DNA of 7,129 bases, taken from the IMG/VR virus record IMGVR_UViG_2693429700_000008. One strand, written 5' to 3'. The DNA is from a virus (taxonomy: Duplodnaviria > Heunggongvirae > Uroviricota > Caudoviricetes). Shown here piece after piece: positions 992 through 5,760 of this stretch. Every line of letters begins with the position of its first letter. The first letter of the stretch is position 1. The notes under the pieces were generated by a model. That model saw only the letters and a list, made by a program, of their open reading frames with translations. It did no database searches and was not told the DNA's origin. A program made the translations under genes and the position numbers.

Positions 992-1086
992 AAGAAATGA
1001 AGAAGGCCACGCAGTTGCGCAGCCTGATAAACCCTGGTTAAAATCCACACGATAACAACACAACAATATCAGTATCTCATGCTATT

Positions 1087-1111
1087 GCCCGAACCCATTC
1101 GGGCATTTTTT
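1087..1111 (+). terminator. Intrinsic-terminator-like hairpin, plus-strand orientation
   Basis: GCCCGAA-CCCA-TTCGGGC (7-bp stem, 4-nt loop) followed by TTTTTT on the plus strand. Confidence 0.4.
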
Positions 1112-1117
1112 ACCCAT

Positions 1118-1148
1118 AAAAAATGCCCCTCCGGAGAGGGGCATTTTT
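1118..1148. terminator. Bidirectional rho-independent terminator
   Basis: AAAAAA-TGCCCCTC-CGGA-GAGGGGCA-TTTTT: 8-bp GC-rich stem flanked by an A-run and a T-run, so a hairpin plus U-tract forms on either strand. Sits between the TerB-like/small-ORF block and the esterase gene. Confidence 0.65.
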
Positions 1149-1345
1149 GCATGCACATTCTTTTTCTTGCATGGTGCCGGGTGCCTCCCGGTGAATTCAG
1201 TATCAGCACCTGAATCCGCGATTATCACATATACCTACTTGCTGATTGCCCCTCCGCACAGGGGGATTCACCATGCAGTAGTATTTTTAATAAACAGCAA
1301 ATAAAAAAATCAAGCATTATGCAGGCTGTTTCTTTTTATCACCGG

Positions 1346-1477
1346 CTACAGCAATACCACAATGCCGCAGACCAGCACCCCATCCGCCAGCACCGACATG
1401 ATTCTGCTGGTGAAATCCACCATCACCACCAGAAACAGCAGGAGTGCAGCCACAGCCAGGCGCAGTTTTACCGTCAC
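1346..1477 (-). CDS. Hypothetical small hydrophobic (membrane) peptide, 43 aa
   Basis: GTG start at 1477-1475 overlaps the TGA of the upstream TerB-like frame (GTGA), with GGAG 8 nt upstream. Translation VTVKLRLAVAALLLFLVVMVDFTSRIMSVLADGVLVCGIVVLL, stop TAG at 1348-1346. Not in the ORF track (too short). Confidence 0.25.
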   Translation of the reverse strand: MTVKLRLAVAALLLFLVVMVDFTSRIMSVLADGVLVCGIVVLL

Positions 1478-1935
1478 AGGTGATTCTCCAGACGAAGACC
1501 CAGAACACCGGCAATCTCTTCCAGCACCTTGCGCTCTTCCGGCTCAATTTCGCCGTCTGCCTCCGCAATGGCCACCGCCACATCCAGCACATCTTCCGCT
1601 TCACGCGTATCGTGTTTCACATCCTCGATCTCACGTAACGCCGCACGACGACCAATTTTAAAGTTCGTATCCAGCTGACCGATAATGGTTGCGCTAATCG
1701 CATTAATTTCTGACGTAAACGCGGACAGCGCAGGCTGATTACGCAGTACCTGTTCGATCTTCGCTTTCTAGGAAGCCTCACATTCACCATCTGCACAGGC
1801 CACCAAGTAGGCAGCATTAATAACCGCCTGTGCCAGATCGCGTTTCTCAAACTTTCCTTTTTCCGGTTAACGTGACACACCAATAACTCTTGTCGAAAAA
1901 GCCAGCAAGCTGAAAGACCGGTATTCACAACCACC
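1474..1935 (-). pseudogene. TerB-family (tellurite-resistance TerB-like) gene remnant, disrupted by in-frame stops and a frameshift
   Basis: The frame ending in TGA at 1476-1474 translates to ...KGKFEKRDLAQAVINAAYLVACADGECEAS*KAKIEQVL...EDVLDVAVAIAEADGEIEPEERKVLEEIAGVLGLRLENHL, two ADGE-type repeats typical of TerB-like domains. It has an in-frame TAG at 1770-1768 and TAA at 1869-1867. The FFDK-like N-terminal segment (LAGFFDKSYW) lies in a different frame upstream, and no ATG is present. The N-terminal boundary is approximate. Confidence 0.5.
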
Positions 1936-1965
1936 AGCGCGTTTACTGTACTGCACCAAGTTTAC

Positions 1966-1995
1966 GGGCACAAAAAACCCGCTCAGTGGCGGGTT
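1966..1995 (-). terminator. Rho-independent terminator downstream of the lipoprotein gene
   Basis: Minus strand reads AACCCGC-CACTGA-GCGGGTT followed by TTTTTTGTG: 7-bp stem, 6-nt loop, U-tract. Lies ~78 nt after the lipoprotein stop. Confidence 0.65.
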
Positions 1996-2072
1996 GCTAT
2001 CACAGCTATATATTTACTTATTATGCCGTTACTAACATTTATCTTCGACATATAATCGAAAACAAGGTTTGC

Positions 2073-2498
2073 TTAAAACTCTGCTTTCATTTTATCCGGG
2101 AATTTTTTATTTGCAGCATAATAACTACCAAGTACATAAGCGTTCATTTGCTGCTCTACATCAACCCGACATGCCGCACTAGAACAAGCTCCACTGATAA
2201 GCCCAAAAGAACTCCCTTTAGCAGAGAGATCAGCTTTGATTTCCTCTACAGTGTTTTTCCCCATAGCAACTACACACCCTGTCACAATATATCTAGCTTT
2301 CACATCATCCATGCTAAGGATAGTAGTTTTCGCAATTTTGCTGTATCCATCATTTTTATAAACATCCATGGCAAACGCACGGCAATCTGTATAATACGGA
2401 CTTGCTTTAACTTGCGAATACTCAGGTAATTTCATACCAGCACAACCAACTAAACAAAAACCTATCGCTGCTATTAATACCTTTTTCATTACAGTCAT
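2073..2498 (-). CDS. Putative secreted lipoprotein of unknown function (moron cargo), ~137-141 aa
   Basis: ORF with lipoprotein signal peptide MKKVLIAAIGFCLVGCAG (lipobox LVGC). The real start is probably the second ATG at 2489 (MKKVL) rather than 2498 (MTVMKK). The mature part has four further Cys. The gene and its flanks are markedly AT-rich (roughly one-third GC by eye) compared with the ~50% GC phage genes around it. Not recognised as Bor, Cor, Lom or a known lysozyme inhibitor. Confidence 0.75.
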   Translation of the reverse strand: MTVMKKVLIAAIGFCLVGCAGMKLPEYSQVKASPYYTDCRAFAMDVYKNDGYSKIAKTTILSMDDVKARYIVTGCVVAMGKNTVEEIKADLSAKGSSFGLISGACSSAACRVDVEQQMNAYVLGSYYAANKKFPDKMKAEF

Positions 2499-2586
2499 AA
2501 CCTAGAAGCATCATTGAAACTAATTTATTAAATAACCATCGAGTTTCTGGAATACAGACGTTAACCATCTCTCCAAAATCTAAAAG

Positions 2587-2615
2587 ATAATAAGAAAAAA
2601 TGTTTAACGCACCAA
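2587..2615 (-). promoter_or_regulatory. Candidate sigma70 promoter for the lipoprotein gene
   Basis: Minus strand: -35 TTGGTG (2615-2610), 17-nt spacer, -10 TATTAT (2592-2587), ~90 nt upstream of the lipoprotein start and downstream of the tR'-like hairpin. The region is AT-rich, so chance hexamer matches are possible. Confidence 0.35.
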
Positions 2616-2642
2616 TCCATTTCATAGTTTCATGAGACATCA

Positions 2643-2675
2643 GGCACAAAAAAACCCGCTCAGCGGCAGGTTTTT
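2643..2675. terminator. tR'-like terminator after the late promoter (weak hairpin, A-run/T-run on both sides)
   Basis: CACAAAAAAA-CCCGCTCAGCGG-CAGG-TTTTT. Minus strand gives CCGC-TGA-GCGG followed by TTTTTTT. It is a diverged copy of the hairpin at 1966-1995. Confidence 0.5.
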
Positions 2676-2703
2676 GACATTTACCAACGGTAGACATACA
2701 AGG

Positions 2704-2747
2704 CCCATCGTTGAGAAAATCTTATCCATATTTTTTGAAAAATGCAA
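2704..2747 (-). promoter_or_regulatory. Late promoter pR'-like with lambda-type initial transcribed/pause element (probable Q utilisation site)
   Basis: Minus strand: -35 TTGCAT (2747-2742), 17-nt spacer, -10 TAAGAT (2724-2719), then TTTCT and CAACGATGGG (2713-2704). As I recall it, lambda pR' has the same CAACGATGGG stretch, containing the -10-like AACGAT pause inducer. Lies ~30 bp after the Q stop. Confidence 0.5.
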
Positions 2748-2778
2748 GTATCACGTCGACATCTTCGGCGAAAATTAT

Positions 2779-3531
2779 CTATCTTGTCACTTTTCTCAAT
2801 TGCGATTCAGCATACGCTTCTTCCTGCCAGCACTTTGTAACCAGTTTATTAATAACGTCTGCATATCCTTTGTACCACTGATAATCCGTCAGGTCCGGTA
2901 CCAGTTTCTGGACATGATGCCGCGCCAGTGTGGTTGGTAAACGGCTAAACCGGTTGCCATTGCAACGCCCACAAATCTTATAAACAGGCACACCATGAAG
3001 CCGGGTTCTTTTTTCATCCAGGACAATACCTTTACCCTTACACCCTCTGCACGCTGTGCTGACTTCTCCCTTACCATGGCAATGCTGACATAGTTCCTTC
3101 ACCCACTCTTCCTTGATAACAGATTCCCCGCTTCTGGAGTGTTTCACCACTTCGCGCAATACATTATGAAATCCAGTACCAGCACAATGCTCACAGCGAG
3201 CCTTACTTGCCGCAGACCTGGAATAATCAGCAAAGGCAAAATTCACAAGGTAAGGGATGATCTGTAACCGGATTTCTTCACTCAATTTGTTCAATGTCGG
3301 GTTATCCAGTGCCATCGCGTAATTGAGCAGACCTTCAATCGCAAACTGAGGGTCCTGAACGCCAACTTTTGCCAGGAATAAAGCAAACCCAAGCGGTGCT
3401 TTCGACTGCACCATCCCCTGCGCAGCCATTACATCCGTAATTGTTAAACCACCCGAGCCTGTCGCCGGTGCGTCATCGCTCAGTTTTGGAGATTTCGGGG
3501 AGTAATATTTCGGTAAGGCTTCAAGGTTCAT
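2779..3531 (-). CDS. Q: Late-gene antitermination protein Q (250-aa, QuuQ-like family)
   Basis: 250-aa ORF; ATG at 3531 with GGAG 7 nt upstream; position immediately upstream of the pR'-like promoter. Cys-rich central region with four CxxCxGxG-type repeats. The family call is from memory of E. coli prophage Q proteins. Confidence 0.75.
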   Translation of the reverse strand: MNLEALPKYYSPKSPKLSDDAPATGSGGLTITDVMAAQGMVQSKAPLGFALFLAKVGVQDPQFAIEGLLNYAMALDNPTLNKLSEEIRLQIIPYLVNFAFADYSRSAASKARCEHCAGTGFHNVLREVVKHSRSGESVIKEEWVKELCQHCHGKGEVSTACRGCKGKGIVLDEKRTRLHGVPVYKICGRCNGNRFSRLPTTLARHHVQKLVPDLTDYQWYKGYADVINKLVTKCWQEEAYAESQLRKVTR

Positions 3532-3544
3532 GCTCGTTCTCCAC

Positions 3545-4540
3545 TTACGCCAGTACGCCTATTGCCAGCGCACGATCGATAAAACGAAATATCAGCTCCA
3601 GCTGGGAACCATACTTCTCTTCAAATGCCACAGTATCCGCATGCAGCTCGTCGTGATGCTTTCTGCACAAAGGCAACACAAAGAGGTCATGCGCTTTTGT
3701 ACCCATTCCCCCCTGACCGTGGCCTATCAGGTGGTGGGGATCATCAGCAGGCTTTCCACAACATGCACACGGCTGTGTCTTAACCCAGCGTGTGTACTTT
3801 TCATTAACCCAGCGGCGACGTTTTGGGCGTAACATAAAAGACTCCGGCGACTCCGGATCCACTTTCAGCGCCAGCACCTTTTTCGCCTTATCCTGGATGA
3901 TGCTGGTGGCAGGAACCGAAGGCACAAGGTCACTTTCCCGGGTGACAGACGGCACAACAGGCTTCGGTAATCTCAGTGCCTTACGGGCTGCACTTTCCGG
4001 TAAGGCATCCGCCAGGTCATTACGAATCAGCCACCAGCACAGTTCCGGCATTGTCACAACGTGACTGTCATCAAAACCGAGATCCCGACGCACAACAGAC
4101 AACACCCAGCGGGCACAGTTATCCGTTGCCATTGATTCCAGCCGTTCCGTGAACTGATCACGCAGCTGGTTATCGCAGTGCCAGCACAGACGGATTGCGC
4201 CCGGCGCGTGTCGCATTGTGGTCATGTTCTCTCTGTGCCAATCGGAATGAGGCCACTGGCAGCCTTTTTCACGAAGTAACCAGCTTTCAAGACATTCCAC
4301 GCCACCAGCACGACGGATCACTGCCTCATTGCGGAACACGGCCCGAACGGCAGGATCATCCACCAGCGGTTGTGATGCCGCCGGAACGGCACCACTGGCG
4401 AAAGATGAATAACGTTCCGGCTCAGGCTCCAGCAGGACACGCCCCTGCATAAACAGGGGCATCAGCTCTGAACCTGGCCTGAACAATACGATCCCCATAC
4501 GCGGGGCAATTTCAGGGGTCAGTAGTGCTCTCACGGTCAC
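3545..4540 (-). CDS. DUF968-family (YdfU-like) prophage protein with C-terminal Cys/His (HNH-like) motif
   Basis: 331-codon ORF directly upstream of Q. C-terminal CACCGKPADDPHHLIGHGQGG...LCRKHHDELHAD. Start is uncertain: GTG at 4540 is 1 nt after the KilA-N stop, and GTG at 4534 has GAGG 5 nt upstream. Confidence 0.65.
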   Translation of the reverse strand: MTVRALLTPEIAPRMGIVLFRPGSELMPLFMQGRVLLEPEPERYSSFASGAVPAASQPLVDDPAVRAVFRNEAVIRRAGGVECLESWLLREKGCQWPHSDWHRENMTTMRHAPGAIRLCWHCDNQLRDQFTERLESMATDNCARWVLSVVRRDLGFDDSHVVTMPELCWWLIRNDLADALPESAARKALRLPKPVVPSVTRESDLVPSVPATSIIQDKAKKVLALKVDPESPESFMLRPKRRRWVNEKYTRWVKTQPCACCGKPADDPHHLIGHGQGGMGTKAHDLFVLPLCRKHHDELHADTVAFEEKYGSQLELIFRFIDRALAIGVLA

Positions 4541-4541
4541 C

Positions 4542-5351
4542 TCAATGAACGGTATCGAGCAGCTTTAACAGCTCAGGGAATCGGGATTCGAAGAAATGCG
4601 GCTGCGTCTCGCGCGGATTTGCGGGACTGGTGATGTTCTTGCCGAACATGCAGCCTTTCGCCGTCAGCGACCAGAATTTTTTGATGTTGTTAATCGCAGT
4701 GCGGCTGTATCGTTCACGTTGTTCAACGATCCCCAGCTTTGCCATCTGGTGATATGCCTGATTAGCCGTCAGGCGGATACCATACTGTTTCAGCAGTGCA
4801 CTCAGTGACAGTGTCGGGCGACTTGAGCCATCGTGTGCATCAGCAGGAGCATCAATGGCATAGCGCGGTGCCAGATTCGGTAAGCCAACAGCCTCCTGGA
4901 GTTTCTGACAGGCACCAAGCACAGATGAGTTAGACAGGTTTAATTCCCGACGCATAAAGTCCAGCAGAATCACACCAGCCTGCATCTTGTCAGCAGCCTG
5001 TCCGGATAATTTTTCCGGTGTGCTGGTTACCATGTCGAAAGTACGGATCACCTTCAGATGGAATGACGGGCTGATCCACATTGCATAGGCATACACCAGT
5101 TCCTTGCAGACATACGTTCCCCGTTCATTTCCCCCATGAATCACACTCACCGGGTCAACACCCAAATTCTGGGTGTTGGTCAATTCATGAACAAGTTCAA
5201 CAGTTTGTTGGCTGGAAAGAAACTTTCCTGGCTCCTTGGTTCTGGCATTTGCACCAGATGCTACTGCTGCGTGATGTAGATCGTTCAGGCTGTAACGCCC
5301 ATAAACATCACGACGAACTTCAATACCATCAATGACCATCAGATTATTCAT
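4542..5351 (-). CDS. KilA-N domain protein (Roi/antirepressor-like)
   Basis: ATG at 5351 with AGGAG 9 nt upstream (MNNLMVIDGIEVRRDVYGRYSLNDLHHAAVASG...). The ORF-track start at 5384 would overlap rusA and lacks an RBS. N-terminal ~110 aa fit the KilA-N pattern (YSLNDL, ERGTYVCKELVYAYAMWISPSFHLKVI). Confidence 0.8.
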   Translation of the reverse strand: MNNLMVIDGIEVRRDVYGRYSLNDLHHAAVASGANARTKEPGKFLSSQQTVELVHELTNTQNLGVDPVSVIHGGNERGTYVCKELVYAYAMWISPSFHLKVIRTFDMVTSTPEKLSGQAADKMQAGVILLDFMRRELNLSNSSVLGACQKLQEAVGLPNLAPRYAIDAPADAHDGSSRPTLSLSALLKQYGIRLTANQAYHQMAKLGIVEQRERYSRTAINNIKKFWSLTAKGCMFGKNITSPANPRETQPHFFESRFPELLKLLDTVH

Positions 5352-5370
5352 ACTTCGTTTCTCCTCTTGA

Positions 5371-5760
5371 TCAGGCGGCTGCACCCGCCGTTTTCTCGTA
5401 CTTACTGATAGTGATCTCGACCTTCCCTTTCGGGATAACCGGTCCCCACTCCACCAGCATTCTTTTCACCTGACTGTCGTCTTCCCACACACCCGCGTGG
5501 GTCAGGGCGTCAAACAGCGCCTTGTTATAGTTGTCCAGATCGCGGATCCTGTTATCCGGAGGAAACAACACGATCTCCACTGAAGCAGGTGCCGACGTTG
5601 GTTTCGGCAGACGACGTAACTGCTCAATGATGGCGGCACACGCCGCGCTCTGAAATTTTCGCCCCGCCTCGCTTATCAGGCTCTTACCAGCAAATGCCCC
5701 TTTGTTGGGGTGTCGCCAGTACGTGTTCACGCTGGGCGGAAAAGGCAGTATTAGCTTCAT
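5371..5760 (-). CDS. rusA: RusA-family Holliday junction resolvase
   Basis: 129-aa ORF: ILPFPPSVNTYWRH...RIRDLDNYNKALFDALTHAGVWEDDSQV matches the RusA pattern (LPWPPSNNRYYRH...[28 protein letters not shown]). Its ATG overlaps the methyltransferase stop (ATGA). Confidence 0.9.
   Translation of the reverse strand: MKLILPFPPSVNTYWRHPNKGAFAGKSLISEAGRKFQSAACAAIIEQLRRLPKPTSAPASVEIVLFPPDNRIRDLDNYNKALFDALTHAGVWEDDSQVKRMLVEWGPVIPKGKVEITISKYEKTAGAAA

Follow-up and report, generated by a model that had tools for sequence, protein, structure and literature searches.

Morons were first defined for phages HK97 and HK022 as extra DNA between sites that are adjacent in related phages, with a differing GC content and with a promoter and a terminator of their own (PMC3594210). 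In the PeSL cassettes of T4-type phages, non-essential open reading frames (ORFs) are flanked by repeated stem-loop terminators, the endpoints of indels and replacements fall in these repeats, and recombination between the repeats is the proposed driver of change (Arbiol et al. 2010, PMC2839356). Here, we describe an AT-rich cassette of 647 bp with a lipoprotein gene in a stretch of 7,129 nucleotides from the Caudoviricetes record IMGVR_UViG_2693429700_000008 of IMG/VR (the window, in the following). As a whole, the window is probably best explained as the late-control region of a lambdoid E. coli prophage that carries, on the minus strand, the antiterminator gene Q, the late promoter pR', the terminator tR' and late genes. 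We consider it likely that the cassette is a moron which sits at tR', where it is flanked by two terminator copies of ~30 nt, and that the arrangement goes back to recombination at this shared terminator.

The terminator repeat and its single-copy counterparts

An initial sequence-only reading of the window had pointed out near-identical sequences in the same orientation at 1967-1995 and 2643-2672, and both are indeed found there. A repeat search reports them as a direct repeat of 24 nt with 92% identity (1972-1995 versus 2649-2672) at a spacing of 677 bp. Including a GGCAC tail, the repeat unit comprises 29 or 30 nt, and the two copies differ by two substitutions and one extra A. With up to three mismatches, the 24-nt pattern occurs at exactly two sites in the window and at none in 200 dinucleotide shuffles. 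When 100 nt around each copy are aligned, the likeness extends from the base of the stem to ~7 nt past the U-tract, and the flanks do not align.

The same reading had proposed a comparison with related prophages that lack the lipoprotein gene, and these carry a single hairpin at the junction in phage SfV, in 18 IMG/VR contigs and in the prophages of 260 E. coli genomes. In SfV (L002), window positions 2637-5500 correspond to 2501-5365 and window positions 1856-1995 to 2396-2537, with both flanks of the window overlapping on one hairpin of 30-37 bp. Comparison of phage Ayreon, which has the cassette, to SfV yields the 647-bp insert plus an overlap of 30 bp. In searches of the phage and E. coli collections, many matches on the side of Q end at window positions 2637-2653, and other matches, on the side of a TerB-family ORF, end at 1995. 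Alignment of these sites (A5) shows that the empty site consists of the upstream half of the proximal copy and the downstream half of the distal copy, as seen from Q.

We scanned IMG/VR with the hairpin core and clustered the flanks of the matches into left (L) and right (R) types. In the 18 empty contigs, flank L1 is joined through the hairpin to R1, the flank with Q and pR', and 18-19 contigs are filled. Among 5426 complete E. coli genomes, the contiguous empty junction is present in 260 and the cassette in 215, always at essentially full length with at least 97.7% identity and never on plasmids. R1 or L1 can also be linked through the hairpin to further flanks, as in the SfV type (eight contigs), a tRNA context in strain MS8345 and the R3 flank (14 contigs). 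R3- and R16-type flanks represent the arrangement of strain 12089, in which two reverse-oriented genes and a different Q precede the hairpin and L1. One Stx2c and one Stx2k phage have the cassette, including both terminators, between Q and stx2AB, and 14 further Stx2c phage records carry the same segment of Q and cassette.

The insert of the filled sites, absent from related phages, occupies 1996..2642 on the minus strand and has a GC content of 0.357 compared to 0.477 for Q, 0.54 for the TerB-family ORF and DUF3927 gene and 0.534 for the rest of the window (range of neighbouring genes, 0.48-0.56). The early impression that the two copies mark the two edges of an AT-rich island holds insofar as the DNA between them is AT-rich, but an equally low GC content of 0.358 is found past the proximal copy towards Q, in the intergenic region with pR' (2673-2778). 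Since composition alone cannot place it, the Q-side edge of the insert is set by the comparison to related phages. Being extra DNA relative to close relatives, with deviant GC content and a predicted terminator, the cassette fits the definition of a moron, and we classify it as such on these grounds.

The late promoter and the two hairpins

The late antiterminator Q of the window is a protein of 250 amino acids (2779..3531, minus strand; Pfam PF03589 with 9.4e-54 and PF00684; PDB 7ubm, lambda Q, with 1.6e-36; phrog_127). It belongs to the lambda Q family and carries ~40 extra residues with DnaJ-type CXXCXGXG zinc-finger repeats between two lambda-like halves. The late promoter pR' lies 3' of the Q stop codon at 2719..2747 on the minus strand, with a -35 element TTGCAT (2747-2742), a spacer of 17 nt and a -10 element TAAGAT (2724-2719). 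In an alignment of lambda (J02459), the window and SfV, this promoter matches the TTGACT-N17-TAAATT of lambda position for position. Six nucleotides after the -10 element follows AACGATGGG (2704..2712, minus strand), the initial transcribed sequence of lambda, which forms an invariant block in this alignment and is also kept in flank types R1 and R6. The loading of Q in lambda takes place at AACGAT, a sigma-dependent pause element. Counting from pR', the Q-proximal hairpin comes first among the intrinsic terminators, located ~40 nt after AACGATGGG at roughly +42 to +64, and in the records of SfV and Ayreon the corresponding hairpin is marked as a terminator. Because it is the first intrinsic terminator after a lambda-type pR' with AACGATGGG, next to a lambda-family Q, we share the view that this hairpin is the equivalent of tR'. 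A stop at this position predicts an RNA of ~63 nt from pR'.

Both copies fold as predicted intrinsic terminators on the minus strand, which is the strand of the phage genes. In the proximal copy (2643..2672), the stem-loop at 2672-2653 consists of AACCUGC, the loop CGCUGA and GCGGGUU, followed by seven U's (2654-2648) and the tail GUGCC. In the distal copy (1967..1995), the stem-loop at 1995-1976 is composed of AACCCGC, the loop CACUGA and GCGGGUU, with six U's and the tail GUGCC. The distal copy has the full stem that had been ascribed to it; its GC-rich 7 bp and U-tract, with -10.6 kcal/mol, would make it the kind of own terminator that is expected of a moron. The companion claim of a proximal stem cut down from 7 to 4 bp by two substitutions turned out to be wrong, as all seven pairs remain: on the transcribed strand, the A-to-G change sits in the loop and the other change replaces a C-G pair by a U·G wobble. 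For the core hairpins, we calculated -8.4 kcal/mol for the proximal and -10.6 kcal/mol for the distal copy, and the 4-bp alternative reaches only -5.1 kcal/mol. With their flanks, the two copies are roughly equal at -11.7 (proximal) and -11.3 kcal/mol (distal). The wobble variant is a minority allele found in two of 18 proximal copies in IMG/VR. A simple terminator scan of the window listed the distal but not the proximal copy; on our reading, the scan had extended the stem of the latter into the A/U tracts and then counted too few T's.

A conserved non-coding segment 3' of the distal hairpin (1861..1966, minus strand), which we call the L1 leader, was recognised by sequence comparison and is found in many prophages whatever lies beyond it. 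It is common to Ayreon and mEp460 (orf47 context), strain 12089 (TerB context) and SfV. Its fold is no better than that of shuffled sequences (z +1.04), and Rfam at a permissive threshold gave no match to the L1 leader, the two hairpins or the pR'-tR' RNA.

Pairs of one hairpin also occur around other genes in IMG/VR. Five contigs (L038, L054, L099, L102 and L126) have two copies of the same hairpin 1.4-2.0 kb apart, with identical cores in L099. Their hairpins bracket a conserved gene of ~338 codons (product with MSKNWIRHFELM, no Pfam match) together with variable small ORFs for secreted proteins or lipoproteins, and each hairpin lies directly upstream of the ribosome-binding site of the next gene.

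Breakpoints in the hairpin and the proposed history of the site

Several prophages have breakpoints within the hairpin itself. In FRIK944, the distal hairpin of the cassette is joined to a different downstream module (L5), and L5-specific bases stand in place of GGTAC as far as the A-tract. The loop still has the T linked to the cassette, which places the switch between A-tract and loop, within ~15 nt inside the hairpin. Two strains of ST131, JJ1886 (filled) and 4224 (empty), are 99.56% identical downstream and 97.24% identical upstream of the site, and the two alignments overlap on 31 bp. Endpoints of indels and replacements between relatives thus fall in the repeats, as they do in PeSL cassettes. 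In a Salmonella prophage (L131), a lipoprotein gene of 76% identity is flanked by both hairpins and accompanied by an L1-like leader, and the Q alongside belongs to another family (PF06530/DUF1133). The occurrence beside this other Q indicates that the arrangement of hairpin, cassette and hairpin is old and that the Q modules were swapped at the proximal copy or close to it. In L131 (3822-3853) and in an IMG/VR contig (L010), the hairpin core CCCGCCACUGAGCGGG on the transcribed strand is the first terminator after a different type of late promoter, TTGTGRTAGGCTCGGGAC, which is linked to the PF06530/DUF1133 Q in L131. It thus seems that late promoters of two or more Q families make use of one terminator sequence.

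The site also holds a different insert in one contig (L093, ~700-1600 in reverse orientation), where tR' comes after a related Q and pR' and is itself succeeded by an AT-rich insert of 670 bp and then a related hairpin, UACCCGCCAUCGAGCGGGU. This insert has a GC content of 0.43 versus 0.51-0.55 in its flanks and encodes a PemK/MazF-like protein of 133 amino acids (PF02452, 5e-12). It is followed by two small ORFs for holin-like membrane proteins, and no antitoxin ORF was noted next to the toxin-like gene. The insert is a second, unrelated cargo at the same tR' site.

The alleles of the hairpin are distributed unevenly. Proximal copies mostly have GGCAC-A7, a C in the loop and the tail GTGCCTGATGT, like the single site of SfV type. 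Distal copies mostly match the hairpin of L1-type empty sites exactly, with GGTAC-A6 and a T in the loop; the distal copy of the window has GGCAC instead of GGTAC and is thereby one base off this common hairpin. The allele pattern would fit exchange within the hairpin during or after the founding event better than a single clean duplication that was left untouched. Distant homologues of the lipoprotein gene outside late regions (the early-region copy of S. diarizonae and the copy on a Buttiauxella plasmid) are not accompanied by this hairpin, which argues for a hairpin that is part of the site and not of the gene.

From the observed anatomy of the locus, the single-copy state in relatives and the breakpoints inside the hairpin, we infer the following mode of operation, recombination pathway and direction of events. 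The moron would comprise a predicted sigma-70 promoter (2587..2615, minus strand, read from the sequence as TTGGTG at 2615-2610, N17 and TATTAT at 2592-2587), the lipoprotein gene and a 3' untranslated stretch. In a lysogen, pR' would fire constitutively and RNA polymerase would halt at the proximal hairpin, as expected from homology to lambda, releasing the ~63-nt RNA. The cassette promoter would transcribe the lipoprotein gene with transcripts ending at the distal hairpin, a second barrier that would keep the foreign promoter out of the downstream late genes. In the window, these are the TerB-family pseudogene, the DUF3927 gene and a nanS-like esterase gene; in relatives, the genes shielded in this way would be the lysis genes and stx2. 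After induction, Q-modified polymerase would pass both copies according to the known mechanism of Q. The arrangement probably originated from one old insertion, and the ~30-nt hairpin, which is common to many late regions, has probably since served as a short patch of homology for the recombination of modules, by which the cassette would be carried to new backgrounds. Crossing-over between the two copies could delete the cassette and restore a single-hairpin site.

A number of points weigh against this account. The stem AAAAACCCGC...GCGGGTT is a generic one among phage terminators, in which it is combined with dozens of different loops, and likeness in unrelated contexts proves little: an unbiased scan for AAAAACCCGC-N6-GCGGGTT with any 6-nt loop mostly returned other loops, with the loop seen here at ~11 of 120 loci. 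We base the common origin of the two copies in the window on the shared loop, the shared tracts and tail and above all on the geometry of the empty site. The two copies are no identical twins, each resembling a different single-copy allele, which makes them a poor guide to the founding event. Both gain and loss of the cassette would agree with the data. The cassette promoter matches only three of six and five of six hexamer positions, which is below the threshold of our standard scan of the window. The proximal copy of the window is weaker by 2.2 kcal/mol, which makes some read-through from pR' possible. Finally, a tandem or circular junction, in which the end of the cassette is joined through the hairpin to its start, was not found in assembled E. 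coli genomes, though assemblies would miss free circles. The query for this junction matched 215 genomes, equal to the cassette count, and every listed match was the normal arrangement with two pieces ~700 bp apart.

The alternative that we regard as the most serious, though still unlikely, reverses the polarity: hairpin, cassette and hairpin would be the ancestral state of this lineage, and single-hairpin sites would be deletion products of recombination between the 30-bp repeats instead of targets still awaiting an insert. The arrangement is old enough to be common to E. coli and Salmonella prophages at ~78% nucleotide identity, 13 of 18 empty sites are identical to the distal-copy allele, which is what a deletion that spares the L1-linked part of the repeat would leave, and empty sites (260) are about as frequent as filled ones (215). 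Single-hairpin sites do exist, however, with many different modules on either side that never carry the cassette (SfV type, the tRNA context of MS8345, R3 and R6), and the foreign composition of the cassette means that an insertion must have occurred at some point; the same mechanism is compatible with both directions.

The sequence-only reading had left the choice between a duplication of tR' upon insertion and a cassette that brought its own copy. The bracketing by copies of tR' is borne out; as to the two options, the homologues favour a hairpin of the site, and the differing alleles fit poorly with one clean duplication. If the cassette had brought its own terminator of the generic family, it would have been joined illegitimately upstream and by homologous crossover in the terminator downstream, with no duplication of the resident tR'. 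We find this improbable. The stem AAAAACCCGC-N6-GCGGGTT is widespread among phages, morons typically carry a terminator (PMC3594210) and the two copies resemble different alleles, but beyond the generic stem they share five of six loop positions, the A/U tracts and the GUGCC(Y)G tail. Moreover, the distant homologues in the S. diarizonae early region and on the Buttiauxella plasmid have other terminators or none of this family, and the second, unrelated cargo at the same site is bracketed, too.

A self-spreading element of the repetitive extragenic palindromic (REP) or miniature inverted-repeat transposable element (MITE) kind, or else the convergence of two independent terminators, is very hard to reconcile with the distribution of the hairpin. 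Its exact 23-nt core does occur with more than 40 flank types in IMG/VR, including high-GC phages, but most of these contexts are lambdoid late regions. Among the 5426 E. coli genomes, a 35-nt hairpin query matched 2768 at a median of one and a maximum of five places per genome and was absent from about half, which is no genome-wide REP-like element and settles this concern of the sequence-only reading. In the unbiased stem scan, this loop was recovered at ~11 of 120 loci. Convergence leaves the shared tail and the geometry of the empty site unexplained. A target-site duplication by a transposon-like insertion would also leave a direct repeat around an insert that is missing from relatives, but it is the least credible of all, as the only sizeable gene-strand ORF of the cassette is the lipoprotein gene, no transposase or recombinase domain is encoded, no inverted repeats are present at the cassette ends, and the repeat coincides exactly with the terminator unit and, at 30 bp, exceeds the usual length of target duplications by far.

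The cassette gene, neighbouring features and known systems

The lipoprotein gene of the cassette (2073..2498, minus strand) encodes 141 amino acids from its first ATG, though the likely start is MKKV at 2489. Its product has a lipoprotein signal, MKKVLIAAIGFCLVGC, with the lipobox LVGC. The family is tiny with nine clusters from E. coli, Salmonella and a Buttiauxella plasmid. We found no match in Pfam, NCBIfam or PADLOC and no likeness in sequence or fold to any characterised protein; the AlphaFold model, a helical bundle, has no structural neighbours that are informative. A role at the envelope such as superinfection exclusion would be only a guess from analogy. Homologues of 62% identity are encoded in Klebsiella phage records of ~84-120 kb, and one more is found on the Buttiauxella plasmid (phage records: CP101896, CP101890, PQ492289, MK422451 and CP058330). 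Their occurrence in these records shows that the family circulates beyond lambdoid late regions.

At the position that corresponds to the predicted cassette promoter, the Salmonella homologue (76%-identical cassette) has TTGGTA-N18-TATCAT within a poorly conserved spacer. The best sigma-70-like match in the region lies elsewhere, at 2368-2395 on the plus strand (ATGGCA-N16-TATAAT, 10 of 12 positions), antisense inside the lipoprotein ORF, and may be a chance match in AT-rich DNA. An ORF of 91 codons across the proximal hairpin (2422-2697, phrog_37626) was considered and rejected as a gene based on poor conservation and indels of 1-2 nt in the Salmonella homologue; Ayreon annotates only a remnant of 38 codons at its position. 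In E. coli 23CRST030 (L005, locus positions ~3122-3355), an insertion sequence of the IS21 family (istA/istB) sits ~25 bp before the proximal hairpin in the upstream region of the cassette and parts the lipoprotein gene from Q and pR'.

Ahead of Q, the window carries an adenine methylase-like gene, rusA, a gene of KilA-N type (named from its relatives) and a DUF968 gene. On the other side of the cassette, the TerB-family ORF (1474-1836, minus strand) is a pseudogene with an internal TAG, followed by the DUF3927 gene. Its counterpart in strain 12089 is likewise annotated as a pseudogene with an internal stop, so that the stop in the window is not a sequencing error. Two small RNAs were recognised by Rfam between the DUF3927 gene and the nanS-like esterase gene, namely the anti-GcvB RNA AgvB (1050-1111, plus strand; 96.5 bits, E 2e-18) and STnc100 (1112-1302, minus strand; 146 bits, E 2e-33). 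Beyond the DUF3927 gene and these two matches lies the DUF1737/SASA esterase gene of nanS type.

The locus is a clean and countable example of accessory genes that enter and leave the most tightly regulated spot of lambdoid prophages, between the late promoter and the genes for lysis and toxin. With a copy of the resident terminator on either side, its insert would be insulated, and a regulatory hairpin of 30 nt doubles as a recombination joint. The position of the cassette could bear on the differing toxin expression among Stx2 phage types. For terminator-repeat-driven gain and loss of cassettes in temperate phages, mEp460 or Ayreon (filled) and SfV-like phages (empty) would make a convenient pair. 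In the literature, limited to open-access papers, we found no prior description of the duplicated terminator or of the lipoprotein cassette.

Among known systems, lambda has its tR' at about +194. The constitutive late promoter after Q, AACGATGGG and the Q-dependent terminator of a short RNA liken the window to the pR'-6S RNA-tR' unit of lambda and to StxS of Stx phages (PMC7547250). The terminator of the window is located at ~+42 to +64 compared to +258 in Stx1 and Stx2a phages (PMC7547250), and it is present in two copies. Like morons of lambdoid phages, the cassette encodes a small envelope protein that is likely expressed from the prophage. Unlike in usual morons, its downstream terminator is a copy of the resident tR', so that a direct repeat of 30 nt brackets the insert, and it has entered at the pR'-proximal terminator itself instead of between two structural genes. 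Small lipoprotein accessory genes of temperate coliphages are also represented by bor of lambda and cor of phi80 and N15, which are thought to act at the cell envelope, and the cassette gene resembles them in being of this kind.

PeSL cassettes come closest to the repeat-bounded geometry. Their repeats consist of a strong early promoter and a stem-loop and are found many times per genome in virulent phages, whereas the repeat described here is a terminator only (~30 nt), occurs once or twice per prophage and leaves the predicted cassette promoter outside, in unique cassette DNA. A bolder analogy, which we find rather doubtful, would make the tR' hairpin a portable docking site like the PeSL repeats: exchange would free units of cassette plus hairpin that could re-enter any hairpin-bearing lambdoid late region whatever its Q specificity. 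If this were true, a second terminator and a foreign promoter between pR' and stx2 would alter the expression of toxin and lysis genes in Stx2c and Stx2k phages. The cassette itself is a case of known classes, a moron combined with recombination at a shared terminator, and as such an example of fairly ordinary phage gene shuffling.

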